Shown here: in pieces, positions 41,776 to 56,570 of the stretch
How positions within the stretch are numbered: position 1 is the first letter of the stretch
Layout: every line of letters starts with the position of its first letter
NCBI RefSeq assembly: GCF_026571515.1
Contig: NW_026855015.1
Coordinates: 1-64,000 of the forward strand
Direction: 5' to 3'
DNA from: Ruditapes philippinarum
Lineage: Eukaryota
Length of the DNA: 64,000 nt
Made by a program: the position numbers and the translations under genes
Notes under the pieces: generated by a model
What the model was told of the DNA's origin: nothing
Seen by the model: the letters and a program-made list of their open reading frames with translations, nothing else
The model's database searches: none

Positions 41776-42059
41776 TGTTAATACGTGGAGACGTCATCCT
41801 CGTGTAGCAGCCCTGCAAAGATAAATCAGGCAATATATATACTTTTATTATATACTATGACAATATTGAGAAAAATTGATGAAATAAAATGCGTATTTTC
41901 ATTGTCCGTATTTTCACTGTTAAAATTTATGTTTTACTGCAGTGAAACATATTTTCCATTTTTTCACTGGTGACTTGCCGGACTACTTTCTTCTAAATTC
42001 AGCCAATACACAAAATTTATGGGGAAGTCTTTCAGATTGTAATGTCAAAAAAGAGAATC

Positions 42060-42439: not shown

Positions 42440-42850
42440 AGTGAGGTTTTCTTTTGTCCTTCGATGCGAGGTTATCTTTTGTCCATCGATGTGGGGTTAT
42501 CTTTTGTCCATCGATGTGAAGTAATCTTTTGTCCATCGATGCGAGGTTATCTTTTGTCCATCGATGTGAAGTAATCTTTTGTCCAACGATGTGGGGTTAT
42601 CTTTTGTCCATCGATGTTGGGTTATCTTTTGTCCATCGATGTGGGGTTATCTTTTGTCCATCGATGTGAAGTAATCTTTTGTCCATCGATGTGGGGTTAT
42701 CTTTTGTCTATCATTGTGAGGTTATCTTTTGTCTATCATTGTGAAGTAATCTTTTGTCCATCATGTGATGTAATCTTTTGTCCATCAATGTCAGGTAATC
42801 TTTTGTCCATCAATGTGAAGTAATTTTTTGTCCATCATGTGGTGGTATAT
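42440..42850. repeat. 25-bp minisatellite, about 16 copies
   Basis: Unit GTCCATCGATGTGGGGTTATCTTTT, with an alternating GTGAAGTAATC variant. Confidence 0.92.
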
Positions 42851-44439: not shown

Positions 44440-44860
44440 TTGACATCTGTCAAGTAGCTTTTTAAAACCTGTCACTTTTGTTTATACATACTATCTTTTT
44501 CACCTGTCGAGTAAATTGTCATTTGGTGTCACATGTCAAGTATCTTTGACAATCAAATTGTATGTTGTTTAGACATATTATCATTGTGTCACTTGTCTAG
44601 TAGCTTTTTAAACGACCACCAATGTTGTTTATACATGTACATTAAATCATTGTGTCACCTATCGAGTAGCTTTTAAAAGACCATCGGTGTTGTTTATACA
44701 TATAATCATTGTGTCACATATCGAGTAGCTTTTAAAAGACCATCGGTGTTGTTTATACATATAATCATTGTGTGACCTATCGAGTAGCTGTTTAAATGAT
44801 TATCAATGTTTGTTTATACATACAATCAATCATTGTATGAATTGTCAAGTAGCTTTCTAA
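44440..44860. repeat. about 59-bp tandem repeat, about 7 copies
   Basis: Unit ATCATTGTGTCACATATCGAGTAGCTTTTAAAAGACCATCGGTGTTGTTTATACATATA, with edge copies more degenerate. Confidence 0.85.
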
Positions 44861-44924
44861 AAGAGATGGAAATTACAGATTGTAAATGATGCAAATACTT
44901 TTTGATTTGTTACATTTTTAAATG

Positions 44925-45330
44925 AAAGGGCTGCAAGCTCTGTGGTATTTTCTGATCTTTGCAATCTGAATCGTACTGTATATCTGTATGTATTTTCCTG
45001 TATAAGTTTATTTTTATATACTATAATTCACCTTGCATGGCACCGAGATGCAGCGACTGCGTTTGGATTTTTTTACTTTAACAGTTTGAGTTTGATACAT
45101 ACGGAATTATGCATGACTAGAGTTTCATCAACATTCATTTATGTTCATTGTTTTTGACAGCCGCACTTTATCCTTTTATCCTTGCATATCGTGGCTACTT
45201 CCTTAATAAAAAAAAGTTGCCTCGACTGGGATTTGAACCCCAGACCTCTCACACCCGAAACGAGCGCGTTACCCTTGCACCACGGAAATGTTTAACGGAA
45301 ACAGCCTGAATAAAATAAAATAATTCTAAT
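44925..45330 (-). mobile_element. about 400-bp dispersed element with internal tRNA-Pro-like cassette, copy 2
   Basis: Direct repeat of 42060-42435. Confidence 0.8.
45219..45289 (-). pseudogene. tRNA-Pro(CGG)-like pseudogene
   Basis: Minus strand TGGTGCAAGGGTAACGCGCTCGTTTCGGGTGTGAGAGGTCTGGGGTTCAAATCCCAG: A and B boxes, a CGG anticodon loop and a following T-run. The acceptor stem pairs poorly. Confidence 0.65.
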
Positions 45331-46426: not shown

Positions 46427-49400
46427 TTAGTGAAAGATATCTTGTTAAATGTAAACTTTAAAAAATGAAATAAAGAACAAAGGAGAGCATCGCAAAAAAA
46501 AACTCACTATCCCAACCCACGATCCACACACGCAAAATCAGACCACTCGCACGCACATGCACACACGCGCACGCACACACTTGAATGGTACCTTGTCGGG
46601 CACCGCATAAAGTATCAAGGAGGAATAGTGCACATGGGGCAGGACAAGAAAATGATAACAAAAACCTCAAACCGCAACAAACTCAACAGTGGAAAAAAGA
46701 TCAAATGTGTGCAGAGCATATATGTATGATGCAAAAGGGAGGCAGGGAGGGTAGTTGAGAAGGAGGGCTACAAAAGTTAAAAAGAGACCAAATTCATAAT
46801 TTCTTTTCAGATTTTCAGAAGAAACGTTGATACCTGCGAAACAAGCTGTGAGATAACTCGCTACTGTACCCACGATCATTGCTCGAAATATATGCTGAGT
46901 TATCTCTCCTAACCTCTCTGGTAACATAACACCATATGTCCCTAGAATCAAACCCATGATTGCAAACGAGGCTGATCCACACAACGCGTATGTAGCAATT
47001 ATTTCTGATCTGTGCTATAGAAGAGAATTGCACAAAAAAGAAAATGTCACGTTCACATATAAGTTATGAGAAGTTTTGACTATGTTGGCTATCATACAAA
47101 AGAAGTCTATTTTATGTTTTTAAATAATGTAACCTTTGGTTAACAAAACTATTTATAGATTATTTATTGTTGATTTATTCATATGGATAGACTAACTACA
47201 AAACTGTCATTTTAAAAATGTGTTTTTGTTTCAAAATCATTTTTAAAAACAATAGCACCAATTTGCTTCGTTTTAATAGGTATATACATATCTATAAAAT
47301 AAATACAAAGTTCCGTTTTGGTGGGAAAATATCTTACATCAATAATGCCACCGACTAACGTCTGGTTCAGTTTGTCCAGTACAATATCATTTCCAACAAC
47401 TGTCCAAGTGTTGTTTACACCGCCGGCAATATATTCCCGATATTTTATACCATTCTGAAAATATATATCACATTACGTTATACATGTGTACTCAAAACAT
47501 TTTATCATATTCTGTACTTAAATTACATACACGTAGGAAAACGTTTTAAGATTTTTTTACAAAAGATTCTGAATAAAGATTCGACCACACTTAAACATAT
47601 CCAAATATAATGTTACCATCCGATCTTTTGATGCTGGAAAAAAGATTACCTAGATAATAACATATCAATGAATTTGTAATAACTAAAGTATGAATAACAA
47701 GATCAACCAAGAAGGGGGGCATTCAATAATCACATTTTCCAACACAACCCAGCAACACAAGACCATCGGCGAGTAGCCCAGTCGCACATAAACAAAAACA
47801 GGAAAACACAACGACCAATTGCGAGTATACTTCTTGCGGAGGGATGCAATTGTTGAGATGATGATGATGATGAAGTTACACTGATATAAAATCACGGCAT
47901 ACAATGTATATTGATATAAAACAACGATGTTTACCTGAATAATTGGACCTAATTTAGGAAATGCCACAATAGCAAGACTAATTGTCCTCACACCCAATAG
48001 TTCCCCGATAAATAAACAATCAGCTGACTTTGCTCCCATCATAAACGCAAACGGATAAAACATATACGAAAACAAGAACTGCAATAGAAATAGTCTGTTG
48101 AGCTTATCCATTTGTCTCATAATCATGTGAACCGTTTCAGCCTAACGGAAACAATAAGAATGAAAGTTCCCCAATTGAGGACAGCAAAGAAGTGACTTCT
48201 CAACTGAAATTACAATTATAATGGATTTCCATCAGAATGGTTTACTATAATGGTAAGTCAACCTATTATATTGGTTTTTTTCTGTACCAGAGAATATTGT
48301 GAGCAACTCTTTTTTTCTTAGAAATAAAAATTGCTTTATTTTACTGTCTTATTTTCTAAAGTTATGGTTTTTCTTGCGCCCGATAATTTACTTAAATATG
48401 GACTGATTTCTTTTATTCTTTTACAAACTGTTTTATCATGACTGTCCTTTATATATATGTATTGCTTTTCATGCGCACCTCAAGCGTCATGTTTTCTACG
48501 CCTATTCTTTCACCAAACCAAACAGACGTGCTGTTAAGAAAGGCCATGATAATGACAAAAGCCAGAACGAAAGCAACCAGCTGAACAACGATCGTAGTGC
48601 TCTGACGTATTCCAATGATGATGGACTCCATCAATGATGTCGCTCGTCTGAAAATAAACGTTTTATTATCACAAGAAAGAATAAGAAATAAATGACAAAT
48701 CTGATAGGTATTTCCTATAAGTCTTTATTAAATCATATGATTTACAACTCGGGTACAACTCCTTTATCCCGCTCAACACACTAACAATTAATGTGGTAAT
48801 ATATACAACAATTCATATTGCTCAGTGTTTCGTTGTTTATTTTATACATTGGAACACTTGTCTCTCACCGATGTAGGTTCGAGTACGCAAGCGTGAGAAA
48901 TCAATTCAGCTAGCTTACGGAGCGTCGTTGATTCTACTCGGGTGCCCGTTTGTGCCTGAAATAATGTACTGAGGGACACCTGAGGCCTTCCTCCACCAGT
49001 AAAGCTGAAAAGTCGCCTATACTGTAAAACCCAATCAGAAAAAAAAATATTATATCGGGTTCAGCATTGGTTTTAGCCGAATTTATGGAACGCCGTGACT
49101 GTCTTATGCTATCAATATTTTTGCTATCTTGTGAAATTATGATATTATTTTGTCATTTAAGCATATTAACATGTGCAATTTACATCATATCTTGTCTAAA
49201 GACAATGCTGACTTGTTCAAACAGCATGTTAACTTGTCAAATAATCATTATGACATGTGCAGACAACATGTTAACTTGTCAAAGTATCATGATGACTTGT
49301 GCAAACGACATGTTAACTTGTCAAAATTTCATGATGACATGTGCAAACAGCATGTTAACTTGTCGAATTATCAAGTTATCATTATACTTGGACAAGTTAA

Positions 49401-52400
49401 CATGTCGTTTGCACAAGTCATCATGATACTTGGACAAGTTAACTTGCTGTATGCACATGTCATAACGATAATTCGACAAGTTAACATGCTGTTTACACAT
49501 GTCATCATGGAATTTTGACATGTTAGCATGGCATTTGCACAAGTTATCATAATACTTTGACAAGTTAACAGTACGTTTTGACATGTCAGCATGATACAAG
49601 ATAACATGTCATTTGCACAAGTCATCACGATTCTTTGACAAGTTCACATGTTGTCTTCACAAGTCATCATGGTTATTTGACATGATAACATGCTGTTTGC
49701 ACAAGTCATCATGATACTTTGACAAGTTAATATGTCATTTGCACATGTCATCACGATAATTCGACAAGTTAACATGTCGTTTGCACAAGTCATCATTATA
49801 CTTTGACAAGTTAACATGTCGTTTGCACAAGTCATCATTATACTTTGACAAGTTAACACGGCGTTTGCACAAGTCATCATGACACTTTGACAAGTTACCA
49901 TGTCATTTGCACAAGTCACCATTATACTTTGACAAGTTACCATGTCATTTGCACAAGTCATCATTATACTTTGACAAGTTAGCATGTTGTCTGCACATGT
50001 CATCATAATAATTTGACAAGTTAACATGCTGTTTGTACATGTAAGCTTGTTTCTTTGACGAGACATGATGTAAATTGCACATGTTAACATGCTCAACGAC
50101 AAAATAATATCATCGTTCCACAAGATAACATCATTGATGACATAAGACAGTCACGGCGTTCCATATGAATTCGTGACTATAAAGTCGTTAATATTTTATA
50201 TACTCTATATATCTCACAATAAGCTATACATGTAAAAGATCCTTACATTATTTAATATAGCCAATTTCATAGCAATTAATATACAACATTAAAACAAATT
50301 AAAACAAATTTTTATTCAACGTTATTATTTGCTTGAAAATATGCTTGAGTACATGTTTGAAACTATGCAAAAGCGGGCTACGTCAAGGTTCCGAAGTAAA
50401 AATATGTTTTTATGGTGTGAAACTCATCGCGCACACGCTTGAAACTATGCAAAATATTTTAGACAGGGTTAATGGATTTTAATTATTTTTGTATGCAGGA
50501 CAAGAGGAATGCATCTGTTTAAACTTGCAGTAACGATTGTTTCATACCTACCTTGAGGAGAAAGCACTTGTGTTTATTTTAACATCATCAGCAGTCTGTA
50601 TTGATACTTCTTCCCCGTTGTGAGAAGGAAAGCAGAGCTTACACGCAGCCAAAGCCGCCGGTGCCGACATCGCTGAGGCGGCAATCAAAGGAGCTGCCGG
50701 AATCTGATTGTGGCGAATAAAAAGTTGAGACTTTATACAAAGGTATAGCACACTATATCCAACTATTAAATAAAACACACAACTGATACATGATATGTAA
50801 CAGAAAAGTGTCTGAGGCCGCCATTTTAATATGAAAATAAAGTATTACCTGTACAACACCGATATTAAAGCCAGTTTTGCAGCAATCATATATTGTTCAA
50901 CATTTAAATCTTAACCGCTATAAACAAAGACATCCTTATGTCTTAATATATTGCCGAATGTGTCTACAGTCGATAAAGATACTGTTTATTTAACTTCAAT
51001 AGACAGACGAGCTAATATGTAACATCAAAGATAATGAGAATATACAAGTACTATGCATAAATACAAAATCAATCCAGCCAAAAATGTGACATTAAAATCA
51101 TATTTGCCAAGCAGTTGCAAATGTGATATAGGTTTATAAATACCCCCGATGCCATGAATACAACCAAAGACGTGCCACCAACAGTTGATAAGGCTCCAGC
51201 ATATGTCGCAAACAATTGAGATGGCGTCATTTCATGCAGATACTCTTGTACAAGCATTGCAGATTCAGGCTAAAACATTAATTCAACATTTTTTTTTGAA
51301 TCGGAATATAAAGGTAGCTTTCCACTTTATTAAGGCTATCCTAGAATGTTCTAAACTTCTATATTATTTACGCCAAAACAGGTGGTTTTTCATCTTTTAT
51401 TTGTTGATCTTTTTTACATTAAAAATTATAAATGCATCATTTGTATAATTGCTTATATATCATTTGTCATAAAGATTTTCGCAAAGTTTTACACCTTGTA
51501 TAAGCGGTTAGTGTTAACGGCGAAATAACAATGAAAACTTTACCTGTCAAAAGCTTTACAAAATCTTATTATTCCTTTCTTAACAAACTATGCATACATT
51601 TTTGGTAGTTGTCCATATAGATTTTATAAAAACTATCATTGTCCAGTAAAAATTGACATTATAAACTTGCAAATAATATTGAATCATTTTTTAGATAACT
51701 CAAGCAGCTTATATGGATGCATTTACGAAGAGAGAAAAAAAAACGGCAATAACATATTGAAGGCTTGATTGGATTGACAGCAGTAAATGCAAGCTGCGTT
51801 TAGCACCCACTTAAGCAGAATTCACAATTTAAACATCTTTAACTATCCGTTTTGCATAAGTTTTAAACATCATACCACATGCAAGAAAATATTTCCAACG
51901 GCATTAATCCCCTCGGCAGGACTTGTTCCAAGACAATATGCCAGGGCACGTCCAACAGTGTCTACAATCGCCTTGATAACACCGAGGAATGTCAGCACGG
52001 ATATTGCGATGATGACCACAAAAATTTGGGCTGTAGCCTTATATAGAATGATAAAAAATTATAAGTATATATACATACTTGTTTTTTCTCTTATATTTTA
52101 CAACCAATTTGTTGAAGAAAACTATTTTTAGTCATAACATTGTCACTGCTTATATCATTTGTGAAGGTAAATATGGCTGTTGCTAAATTTTGTTTTCTTT
52201 TCTTTTTTCCCCCATTTGAGGGACGCAAGCACTCGTACTTACTTACTGAATTTTTTTATATTTGAATTAAATGATTATAAATTTCATATTGCAAACGAAT
52301 TTATTTTAATAAGTCGTATCTGCATTTATAAGTTATTTTTTTTTTATAAAAATAGAAAATGTATATTGAGATAAGAAATACAGTGTAGATGCATAAAAAG

Positions 52401-54988
52401 CACACGCTACGATAGAATATCTCTTTTTTATTCATTTATACCAATAAAACTTGTTAGTAGTTTTTGAAATATACTGAAGATAATTATGTAATGGTTCATG
52501 TATTTGTCAAGATAGCGAGTTGCATAAAATTTAAATAAAAATAGAATCTCTTATTTTAAGAATTAAGTAGGTTATGTACAAAGTACATAAAGTACAAATT
52601 TAAAGTAAGAAATATAGGTTACCCTCTGAATGTACAATGTTATTTAATATGTGACTTGAAAAAAATGCTCGACCAACAGTATTTTGTATAATACATAAAT
52701 GAAAAAAAAAACCTATGAGTAATGTCTTGTGAACTGTGTATGTTTTATTTTAGTAGCTGTTATGAGAATTATTTTAGACTGGAAAAAAAATCAGGTGTCT
52801 GTAGTGTTCAGTCATAAAAATATAGTTTTTGTGAGCGGGGCTTGAAAATTTGGCAAGTTTTAACCACACATTTTGGGAAAGGCATATTTAAATTAAACAT
52901 TAGTATTGTGTATTAATGTGTTGCTTTTTTCATACATACGAGAGTGTTTTTTCCCCTGTAGTCTGTTTTAAGAGGGACAACTCGACAGTTTGCAAATTCT
53001 TAACCACAATAAGTACATGAAGTAGCTTTATTAACGGATTAAAAATGTTTAACTAAATTCATAAGTTTAAGTATAGACAAATTCGATAAAACCTACACCA
53101 AATGCCAAATAGTGATCTTTATATGTTTTTCCAAACAGAAAAATACTTCCAGCTACACCATGAGCCAGTAGCTCCTCTAGTCGTCTGCTAACCCAGCGGA
53201 TAATGTTAGCTCCCCAGCTTGTCTTCAAAATCAACAACGCCATGATGAATTGAATAGCCATTGCCCAGAAAACGGTGTGCCAATTGACCTTGCAGAAAAT
53301 AAAATCATCAAGTTGAAAACTAGCTGTACCTTGCAAAAGTCATTTAGTCACGTCAAATGATTCTTTTTTGAAAATTTCATTTTGCTCTCAGTCAAATTTT
53401 AAAAAAAGCGGTACAGAAACATTTCGGATTTAAGAATCGAGAAATGCCGAACTCAAAAATAAAAGTTGACGAAATATTTATCAAAACCTGCCAAATTAAT
53501 TTAATTTAGTAAATGAAACAGGCACTGTGGAGTACCGAAATACGCCGACATTAATAAGCGAAAAGAACAAAATGCAATTTTAAATACCGATATTTGCGTT
53601 TATATCTTGTAATATGTTATTTTATTTTATTACCCATTAAAGTAACAAAATAACGGAAATAATGATTAAAACATGGTCAGTTTAAGTACTACCAAAATAC
53701 CAAGGACCGAAACATAGTGAATAAGAATACTAAACATGGTGCATACATAATGGTCAATATTAGAAGCAAAACAAAAAAAATTGAATATGGAAACAAGTCA
53801 AACTCGAAAATGAGTTTGCACTTGAGTCTATCAAAACAGAACTTACTTTACATTTATTGTTGGAATACAGGTACAATAACAGCGGGAATCCTAGTAATCC
53901 GATTAATGACCAAAGGTTTTCTGGCGTCTTCATGGCAACAGCTATTACCAAGTATATGACAAAGAAAGCAGACATCGCAATGTACAAGAGCCTGTAGTAT
54001 AAAATAGAGGGATATTACACTTTTTTCGTGCATTAACATTCGCTTCAGCATTTAAAGGTGTGGTTTGGTAATAAGTCGACAGATGTTACTGCGCTAAAAT
54101 AGGTGCATTTGTGTAATTCTTGCATATAAATAATGTCTTGTTCAGTAATTTCATTATTTTTGTTTTCTTTTTGTTTTCCGCCGCTGGTCCTTATACTTTC
54201 TAAAACGAAGCAGGCTGATCAAATCATATCAGGTAAGCTTTGTCAGAAGTCTATAGTGTTTTAGAAATAACCAATTAAATCCAGTTTCTACACATGACAA
54301 CGCATTTGAAACATTTGTTTACATCAGTAAGACGCTCCATCATTTTGTCCGAGGATACATATGTTGCACCATATGTATTACGTTTCACTGTTATCTATAA
54401 GTTTTAAACGTGCCCGGTATGTTCGTTCCCGTCGACGATATTAAATTTCTAGAAGGGTAAGACTAAACACTACTTTATACGTTATTATTTCTAAAAAGGT
54501 ATTATATGAATACAAGGAAATAGCTAACGATAAAAAGGAGCTTACCATCTTAAAATCAAGCTCCGATTACCCTTTGAATATTCAGTGCAGAGCGCTTGGA
54601 GACCGGCCGTTAGTTTTGAATGAAAACCAGTCCTCTTAAGCACATGCCAGGCAATGATGAGAATCCCGCAAATTGTACATCCAATCAATCTCCATGACCC
54701 TTCATCACCAATATGATAAGACAACGCGAATCCAAAATATACAAAATACGCAAGGAGCAACACTACCTTTCCTAGAAAAATGAATTTGTCCGAGTTCGCT
54801 TTAAGATATTTGATTTTCGCTCGTGCCGTCTTCGAAAATTGACTCTTACTTTTTAAAAAATTCAATTTAAAATCAGATCCCTTTTCACTATGTTTGTTTG
54901 TAAACTGAATTCCAGACACTGTTTTACTTTGATGATATTTAACCTCTTCACTCTTCACATTTTCATTTTTTATTTCGTTAAGTTCCAT
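46427..54988 (-). CDS. SLC28/CNT concentrative nucleoside transporter family member (divergent), about 614 aa, 11 exons
   Basis: Exons 54546-54988, 53847-53991, 53097-53288, 51876-52037, 51144-51269, 50552-50703, 48479-48647, 47935-48078, 47338-47454 and 46834-47014 splice in frame; the last exon 46427-46440 is tentative. Motifs VNWHTVFWAMAIQF, AGSIFLFG, AVGNIF, LIAASAMSAPAALA, YMFYPFAFMMG, RSEIIATYALCG, GTVASYLTACFA. Confidence 0.88.
48855..49037 (+). mobile_element. SINE family A
   Basis: CTCACCGATGTAGGTTCGAG...CAGCTAGCTTACGG...GTGCCTGAAATAATG...CTTCCTCCACCAGTAAAGCTG. Confidence 0.75.
49084..50165. mobile_element. foldback-type MITE: long TIRs plus an internal 42-bp repeat array that inverts at about 49375
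   Basis: TA|TGGAACGCCGTGACTGTCTTATG ... CATAAGACAGTCACGGCGTTCCA|TA. Unit CATGTTAACTTGTCAAAGTATCATGATGACTTGTGCAAACGA runs forward on the left and reversed on the right. Confidence 0.88.
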
Positions 54989-55349
54989 ATCTAACGTCTA
55001 TGCCATACAGTACCTAAGTTATTTCTAAATCTATACTGCGGTGACTATATGTAAAATATGCGTGTCGTTATTACAAACATAAATTATATAAATGTTAAAA
55101 TTAATATTGCAAGTCGTCGCAAACAAGAAACACTTTGCTATTAATTTGATTTGTATTGCTTTCAAGCGAGAATACTGCGCCAAAACCATTGACCCATTCT
55201 AAAAAAAAAGATGTATGCTAAATAAGAAAGGAACAGGGAGTAAAAAAACCGAATCATTACGGGGGAACGAGACGAATAAAAACTTTATTATTCACAATGG
55301 AAGAATTAAAGGAGAAAAACAGATAGTCAATATGATTTAATAATGTGTC

Positions 55350-56570
55350 AAAGATATAAGTATTCAAAAGTTTGTGATGATGTGATTGTGTACCAGATAA
55401 TGTGTACATAAGTTTGTGTTGATGTGTAACAGATAATGGGTATTCATAAGTGTGTGTTGATGTGTTACAGATAATGGGTATTCATAAGTTTGTGATGATG
55501 TGTCACATACATGTATATTAGTATTCAAAAGTTTGTGATGATGTGACACAGATATAAGTATTCAAAAGTTTGTGATGATGTGTAACAGATATAAGTATTC
55601 AAAAGTTTGTGATGATGTGTCACAGATATTAGAATTCAAAAGTTTAATGTGATTTGTCACAGATATTAGTATTCAAAAGTTTGTGATGCTGTGTCACATA
55701 TATTAGAATTCAAAAGTTTGTGACGATGTGTTACAGAAATTAGTATTCAAAAGTTTGTGATGGTGTGTAACAGATATTAGTATTCAAAAGTTTTTTTTAT
55801 GATGTGTCACAGATATATGTATTTAAAAGCCTGTGATGGTGTGTAACAGATATTAGTATTCAAAATTTGTGATTGTGTATAACAGATATTAGTATTGAAA
55901 AGTTTGTGATGATGTGTCACAGATATTAGTATTCAAAAGTTTGTGATGATGTGCCACAGATATTTGTATTCAAAAGTTTGTGTTAATGTGTCACAGATGT
56001 TAATATTCAAAAATTTGTGATAATGTGTCACATATATAAGTATTCAAAAGTTTGTGATAATGTGTCACAGATATTAGTATTCAAAAGTTTGTGTTGATGT
56101 GTTTTTGAAGAGTCACAGATATCAGTATTTTAAAGTTTATGATGATGTGTCACATATATTAATATTAAAAAATTTGTTTTGATGTGTCATATATATTAAT
56201 ATTCAACAGTTTGCGATGATGTATCACATATATTAGTATTCAAAAGTTTGTGATGACAAGTCACATATATTAGTATTCATAAGTTTGTGCTAATGTGTCA
56301 CATATATTAGTATTCAAAAGTTTGCGATGATGTATCACATATATTAGTATTCAAAAGTTTGTGATGATGTGCCTCAGTTATTTAAAAGTATATGGCGATT
56401 TGTCACAGATGTAAGATATTCAAAAGTACGTGATGCTGTATCACATATTTTTCTAATATTATGTGGAGATATGTTACATGTATAACATATACATTGTTAC
56501 TTAGTTTAGATATGCAAATTTATGTGATAAAATGTCACAGAGATTAAATATAAACAATTATGTGATGATA
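55350..56570. repeat. 37-bp minisatellite, about 30 copies
   Basis: Unit CAGATATTAGTATTCAAAAGTTTGTGATGATGTGTCA. Confidence 0.93.

Follow-up and report, generated by a model that had tools for sequence, protein, structure and literature searches.

An SLC28-type gene of the clam Ruditapes philippinarum with a rewritten nucleoside pocket

Does a member of the SLC28 family of concentrative nucleoside transporters (CNTs) still carry nucleosides once most of the residues that hold them have been replaced? This question is raised by a gene in a window of 64,000 nucleotides from Ruditapes philippinarum (assembly GCF_026571515.1, contig NW_026855015.1, positions 1 to 64,000), which an initial annotation had described as a CNT paralog with three rewritten substrate motifs in an intact frame of at least 10 exons. 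Splice-site reading places this SLC28-type gene (hereafter the main gene) on the minus strand at 54988-41778, with 11 exons, GT-AG introns, zero internal stops and a product of 621 amino acids, which confirms the intact frame. The span first assigned to it, 46834-52037, lies inside the gene but contains only exons 4-10 of the 11. The translation is identical to database protein P0001 (RefSeq XP_060586075.1), where it is named only "SLC28A3-like". The Pfam domains Nucleos_tra2_N (74.8 bits, cut-off 27) and Nucleos_tra2_C (161.5 bits, cut-off 32.3) pass their cut-offs, and Gate stays under its own (24.2 vs 29.6 bits). By descent and fold, the gene is an intact SLC28 offshoot.

Nucleoside contacts, cation site and predicted fold

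All three rewritten motifs were located on the minus strand with their contacts replaced: GNIFLHV of hairpin 1 (HP1) at 51896-51876, spliced to PE at 51269; RTISLAIVAF of hairpin 2 (HP2) from 47988; and LCGSASFAI of the last unwound helix from 46984. The cation-site stretch LSTVGG starts at 51191. HMMER alignments to human CNT3 (hCNT3, 6ksw), bovine CNT3 and Vibrio cholerae CNT (vcCNT, 3tij), from which the residue numbers were counted with offsets of 69 (6ksw) and 6 (3tij), are gap-free across the motifs; a frame shift or misalignment is thereby ruled out, and so is a simple displacement of the residues. Of the eight nucleoside contacts listed for hCNT3 (PMC7440666), one is retained in the clam protein, E343 as E316, while the other seven are replaced (Q341>V314, T342>P315, V375>S348, E519>A499, F563>S564, N565>S566 and S568>I569). 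In vcCNT terms, one of the four nucleobase contacts Q154/T155/E156/V188 is retained (V314, P315, the kept E316 and S348), and none of the ribose contacts E332/N368/S371 or the stacking F366 (A499, S566, I569 and S564). The vcCNT contact numbering given in the initial annotation agrees with PMC7440666 and with Table 3 of PMC5465479, and all the contacts that it named except E156 are indeed gone; it had omitted V188 (hCNT3 V375) and G153 (hCNT3 G340), which are also changed. G340 is the nucleobase-selectivity position (PMC7440666), and it is occupied by H313 in the clam protein.

Published mutants give these replacements their meaning, as far as the cited passages of the papers go. The ribose contacts are called invariant between the human CNTs and vcCNT (PMC4139061). 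The hCNT3 mutants E519A, E519Q and S568P show no uridine binding, while N565A still binds (PMC7440666); cysteine mutants at E343, E519, S568 and F563 are inactive, the two glutamate mutants being poorly surface-expressed, and cysteine is tolerated at Q341, T342 and N565 (PMC5465479). In vcCNT, F366A raises the dissociation constant from 45 to ~1630 μM, a value that its authors call unreliable to measure (PMC4139061). Since single mutants at E519, F563 and S568 cripple known CNTs and all three residues are replaced together in the clam protein, standard nucleoside binding appears unlikely by analogy with these other CNTs. Likewise, the family motif (G/A)XKX3NEFVA(Y/M/F) (PMC5465479) is not present, as the corresponding stretch reads GVRTISLAIVAF. 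Because both the family motif and most of the binding residues are missing, the protein, judged from its sequence, should not be filed as a concentrative nucleoside transporter.

The picture is different at the cation-binding residues. Cation site 1 (vcCNT N149, V152 backbone, S/T183 and I184 backbone) is retained in sequence as N309, L312, T343 and V344, and a putative second cation site maps to S342, S369, C562, S603 and T606. Sodium-site retention had been proposed for the Asn of GNIF and the ST of LSTVGG; this holds for the Asn and for the Thr, which is the vcCNT S183 equivalent, whereas the Ser is Ala in 5 of the 14 full-length members of the clade described below. Compared with human and bovine CNT3 (SLC28A3; PDB 6KSW and 8TZ1), to which it is ~30% identical, the clam protein shares the extra N-terminal helices, the site-1 residues N336/T370 and the second-site residues S396, C561 and T605. 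It differs, besides G340>H and the seven contact changes, in K>R of the family motif, in C602>S and in a longer loop after HP2.

An AlphaFold2 model built from an 84-sequence alignment reached a predicted local distance difference test score (pLDDT) of 88.7 and a predicted template modelling score (pTM) of 0.85. Its breaks at 312-313, 343-346, 497-498 and 562-566 fall at the places of the CNT hairpin tips and unwound segments. Foldseek returned a CNT match with a template modelling score of 0.87 by target length, and VIA aligned 506 residues with hCNT3 at Z 49.3 and a root-mean-square deviation (rmsd) of 2.7 Å; with bovine CNT3 included, the match covers 506-522 residues (Z 49.3 and 46.3, rmsd 2.7 Å). 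The top ranks of both searches were all CNTs (Z 40-49), and the next fold had Z 11.8. For vcCNT (PDB 3TIJ, 4PD6) and CNTnw, both without the N-terminal helices of the clam protein, the core fold matches over ~390 residues (Z 47-49, rmsd ~2.1 Å). The clam protein is therefore predicted by the model to have the CNT elevator fold with two hairpins and two unwound helices. The DASS, TRAP and ArsB-type elevator carriers of small anions (NaCT, VcINDY, SiaQM, IseQM) show a distant structural likeness (Z 8-12, rmsd 4.4-6.1 Å) at ~10% identity; they are a separate family, and such middling Z values for helical proteins give no functional evidence. Their binding sites lie at hairpin tips. The ESM Atlas contained CNT clusters only and gave no substrate lead.

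A clam clade, its relatives and its copies in the genome

Searches with exon 10, residues 190-621 and a wider alignment as queries recovered a tight clade at 58-72% identity from Ruditapes, Mercenaria, Mactra, Mya and Dreissena, while the next proteins stood at ~41%. In a profile search of 1.84 billion representatives, one clade representative scored 985 bits and the next match 563. Six signature residues (H313, V314, P315, A499, S564 and S566) occur together in 16 of 292 aligned proteins; three partial or variant members have 3-4 of them and the remaining 273 proteins at most two. These 19 signature-bearing proteins include isoforms and one fused model. Among the full-length members, which include two pairs each sharing a 90% cluster, P315, E316, A499, S564 and S566 are present in 14 of 14, H313 and V314 in 13 of 14, and the cation-site residues N309, T343, V344, S369, C562, S603 and T606 again in 14 of 14.

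All trees reported here are quick trees. In three of them, two built without the pocket columns, the clade received 100 in the Shimodaira-Hasegawa-like approximate likelihood ratio test (SH-aLRT) and was nested among molluscan CNTs; its stem branch is long (~1.0 change per site). Both Venerida and Myida are represented in the clade, and these orders split ~200 million years ago or more. The substitutions thus define a conserved clade across two clam orders.

The proposal that change is concentrated at ligand contacts was borne out, in that the clade has a fixed new residue in 4 of 8 contact columns versus 41 of 364 other columns (one-sided Fisher p = 0.009) and in 0 of 9 cation-site columns. 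As the clade was chosen for these changes, this p value serves only as a description. The background comprised all 273 non-clade rows and replaces that of a first test, defined by five pocket residues, which was partly circular. Within the clade, the best-conserved regions are HP1, the next two helices, HP2 and the last unwound helix (0.88-0.92, vs 0.76-0.79 for scaffold and loop), a pattern as expected from the sequence of a working transport domain.

To place these changes within the family, we aligned 124 CNT representatives at all eight sites (of 146 new among 150 listed, the best 150 of 5827 matches, a list biased toward the query). Among these listed matches, all of E343, E519, F563, N565 and S568 are retained in 72 of the 124, four of the five in 15 and at most three in 37. 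Twenty divergent-pocket proteins were looked up, including 14 from molluscs, three from annelids and one from a hemichordate. The clam clade falls within a bivalve-wide group without E519, together with Solemya, scallops and the pearl oyster (SH-aLRT 99, three trees). A single origin of all molluscan E519-less proteins is not established: joining the bivalve and gastropod proteins received SH-aLRT 99 under LG+G4, in a group that also took in a long Owenia row, and 63 under a mixture model. Pocket loss is therefore not unique to the clam clade, as the bivalve-wide group and other invertebrate CNTs also have altered pockets; by their sequences, pocket rewriting is recurrent in invertebrate CNTs, and the clam clade is among the most extreme cases.

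The canonical molluscan SLC28A3-like proteins (e.g. P0025, P0027, P0060; genome copies C7910, C4382), at ~36-41% identity and with a similar exon layout in the genome copies, keep NEF[VIL]AY and CGF[AS]N, both of which are missing from the clam clade. The E519-less sister bivalve groups (P0050, P0062, P0156; scallop P0035, P0044, P0163; Solemya P0137, P0155; Pinctada P0161) belong to the same larger clade, have lost the HP2 glutamate and in most cases have Arg for Lys. Unlike in the clam clade, the aromatic at F563 is mostly retained and the HP1 tips are rich in Gly/Ser (GGIE, GGGQ); among the 292 aligned proteins, His-Val-Pro and F>S are confined to the clam clade.

A PF07662 scan of the Ruditapes genome gave 57 matches on 13 contigs, grouped into 18 loci, some of which may be allelic haplotigs: six of the main-gene type, three of a sister type and nine with NEF[VIL]AY. 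The contig of the window carries four main-gene-type copies, namely the main gene and three plus-strand copies at ~72, 82 and 93 kb, the first of which duplicates the main gene in inverted orientation, introns included. The fifth copy lies on C11657, and C8293 holds a 3' end only, 95% identical and probably an allele. A search with exon 4 likewise found five close copies among 8 matches. The initial annotation had overlooked this multi-copy subfamily, nested in a wider molluscan CNT set with altered pockets, a set that broadens the finding yet makes the main gene less of a one-off.

The five complete copies have identical splice sites and zero stops across 527 codons. The ratio of nonsynonymous to synonymous substitution rates (dN/dS, NG86) was 0.216 and 0.189 when the main gene was compared with its two nearest copies, and the other unsaturated pairs gave 0.199 and 0.220; synonymous sites were saturated in the six distant copy pairs. 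Fixing the first parameter of a codon model at 1.0, which was meant to set omega to 1, worsened the fit by 216 log units. Among the copies, the codons for H313, V314, P315, E316, A499, S564 and S566 show synonymous differences only. The five complete copies are under purifying selection, and a pseudogene is ruled out by the intact frames and splice sites and the dN/dS of ~0.2. The reading of the gene as not decaying is thus upheld, as it is by the conserved clade across two clam orders.

The 72 kb copy (P0127, the nearest duplicate) differs from the main gene at two pocket positions, S348>G and I569>N, possibly a further tuning of specificity. The sister-type genes on C11274, C3748 and C8778 have a different rewritten pocket (RTLSSPV, RTLSSPG, RSISLAG) and keep CGFAS.

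Candidate function and rival explanations

From its sequence, we consider the clam protein probably to be a cation-coupled elevator carrier, likely using sodium, of a small non-ribose solute. Binding of a cation in the space between HP1 and the unwound helix, at N309, the L312 backbone, T343 and V344, would shut the pocket in the manner of CNTs, and an elevator-type motion would carry the transport domain along the scaffold. H313 would fill part of the former nucleobase space, the replacements A499, I569 and S564 would do away with the aromatic floor and with hydrogen bonding to the ribose, and H313/E316 together with the hairpin serines S497, S564 and S566 could form a smaller polar site. Nucleoside salvage would stay with the canonical paralogs, freeing the main copy to change. 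As to the substrate class, small organic anions or zwitterions, for example short carboxylates, sulfonates or metabolites resembling amino acids, are a guess from the pocket residues that we regard as doubtful. On a wider scale, we tentatively put forward that an early loss of the ribose-binding glutamate may have led to a radiation of molluscan SLC28 proteins for unrelated solutes, in which the clam clade, with its His-Val-Pro-Glu hairpin and serine-lined pocket, would be a sodium-coupled carrier of a small non-nucleoside metabolite.

Several observations weigh against the proposed carrier. In 25 of 103 other conserved columns the family residue is also lost in the clade, so that the pocket is enriched in changes without being their only site. 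The AlphaFold2 alignment consisted mostly of canonical CNTs and a single-sequence model reached a pLDDT of only 40.8; pocket shape and side-chain directions are those that we infer from the alignment. Proton-coupled NupC has Ser, Leu, Thr and Val at the four site-1 positions (PMC5465479, in the part cited); only N309 sets sodium-type CNTs apart from it, and sodium coupling therefore rests on one residue. The clade includes a freshwater member, Dreissena P0012, which speaks against a purely marine-osmolyte role. Finally, spliced products are known solely from relatives. Among these, P0002 (208 amino acids, from a 1140-base Logan contig) matches the C11657 paralog in 207 of 208 residues and is a spliced product, because its exons span more than 5 kb of genome; P0017 is a 614-residue clade member from a 2500-base contig.

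The loss of all ribose contacts, with several replacements small or hydrophobic (A499, I569, V314, P315), would also suit a protein that does not transport or is uncoupled, for instance one that senses a solute, leaks cations or joins canonical CNTs in mixed trimers as an accessory subunit, and the many scaffold positions kept (W199, Q209, G222, G243, F246-G249) make assembly with paralogs conceivable. We nevertheless regard such a role as unlikely, given that conservation peaks in the moving transport domain and the pocket rather than in the scaffold, and that five or six copies per genome fit a dosage-driven carrier. The fixed new polar residues H313, S497, S564 and S566 suggest a ligand, although a sensor also needs a pocket. 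The initial annotation had proposed neofunctionalisation, either to a non-nucleoside solute or to a sensor or regulatory subunit; a non-standard nucleoside pocket is strongly supported by the published single mutants, whereas the choice between a new substrate and a non-transport role stays a matter of inference.

Rather improbable, too, is a rebuilt pocket for nucleoside-related compounds (free nucleobases, modified nucleosides or other ribosides). The base contact E316 is kept, a free base needs no ribose contacts, the tolerance of hCNT3 to N565A and to cysteine at Q341, T342 and N565 (PMC7440666, PMC5465479) points the same way, and the characterised family members in the cited passages of the literature all carry nucleosides. 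Against this stand the joint replacement of E519, F563 and S568, each crippling when lost singly, the His at the base-selectivity position G340, and the canonical paralogs in the same genome. That the locus is a decaying duplicate, or an artefact of alignment or gene model, is hardly credible: the long stem branch and the restriction of known transcripts to relatives would fit, but five of five complete copies are stop-free with intact splice sites over 527 codons at a dN/dS of ~0.2, pocket codons vary only synonymously at seven positions, the same residues recur in five genera, and the alignment is gap-free.

If a non-nucleoside carrier is the right reading, this would be the first non-nucleoside function in SLC28, masked by the database label "SLC28A3-like". 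The CNTs in the cited passages are nucleoside carriers with invariant ribose contacts, and a selected, multi-copy clam subfamily without them would extend the family to new chemistry; the clade would offer a natural experiment in which an elevator carrier switches substrate with its ion site retained. In transcriptome studies, the names "SLC28A3-like" and "sodium/nucleoside cotransporter" probably mislead for many mollusc genes. One mantle network of the clam Laternula lists "SLC28 member 3" and "sodium/nucleoside cotransporter 2" by name (PMC7703775). We found no account of the clade or of a non-nucleoside SLC28 in the open-access literature, a coverage that leaves out subscription papers and supplements.

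Exon layout and neighbouring features

All exons lie on the minus strand. Exon 1 (54546-54988) encodes Met1-Arg147, the cytoplasmic N-terminus with the first eukaryote-type helices, and exon 2 (53847-53991) residues 148-196. Exon 3 (53097-53288; residues 197-260) covers a scaffold region inside Pfam Nucleos_tra2_N and has an AAG acceptor common to two paralogs. The C-terminal end of exon 4 (51876-52037; residues 261-314) is the HP1 stretch N309-I-F-L312-H313-V314 (51893-51876), with N309 and L312 of cation site 1, H313 for hCNT3 G340 and V314 for Q341. Exon 5 (51144-51269; residues 315-356) continues with P315 for T342, the kept E316 for E343, Y337, the cation-site residues S342-T343-V344 at 51188-51180, and T347/S348 for S374/V375. 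The conserved ASAMSAPAA helix with S369 (hCNT3 S396) lies in exon 6 (50552-50703; residues 357-407), and a long scaffold helix with Q429, invariant within the clade, in exon 7 (48479-48647; residues 407-463). Exon 8 (47935-48078; residues 464-511) holds HP2, R494-TISLAIVAF (47988-47959) for the family motif KxxxNEFVAY, with A499 for E519. A loop with predicted beta strands is encoded by exon 9 (47338-47454; residues 512-550). Exon 10 (46834-47014; residues 551-611) contains the unwound segment L561-CGSASFAI (46984-46958), with S564 for F563, S566 for N565 and I569 for S568, as well as S603 and T606, which correspond to hCNT3 C602 and T605. Exon 11 (41778-41812; residues 611-621 and stop) matches P0001 and the last exons of neighbouring copies; alternative last exons at 45305 and 44203 were dropped, as the 41812 exon fits P0001 and the paralogs.

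Tandem arrays were found in and near the gene. Intron 6 holds a 42-bp array with a 21-bp subunit (49169-50039) in two parts that look oppositely oriented, and the long last intron holds a 25-bp array (42441-42841) and a 59-bp array (44562-44864). A 37-bp array of 29 copies (55343-56445) lies ~350 bases upstream of the start codon and also occurs upstream of the inverted duplicate. Between the main gene and this duplicate lies an intact three-exon globin gene (61822-59013, minus strand, 167 amino acids; Pfam Globin E 6e-12 on exon 2). No such globin neighbour turned up in the stretches examined around the other copies, and we found no functional link to the main gene.

Further along the contig, the RefSeq model XP_060586079.1 (P0128, 885 amino acids; G000:C3502:82534-101480) takes its first part from the 82 kb copy (exons 1-7) and the rest from the 93 kb copy (exons 3-11), and thus appears to fuse two separate complete genes, each with its own first and last exon. 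Elsewhere in the genome, the canonical CNT gene at C7910:513064-513518 has two tandem versions of the CGFSN exon ~250 bases apart, possibly used alternatively. Two locus pairs, C7172/C7558 and C5984/C13597, are near-identical and probably represent either recent duplications or allelic haplotigs. CGFGSIA (N565>S, S568>A) is the form at C7172/C7558, and ALSSFSN occurs in one copy on C13597.

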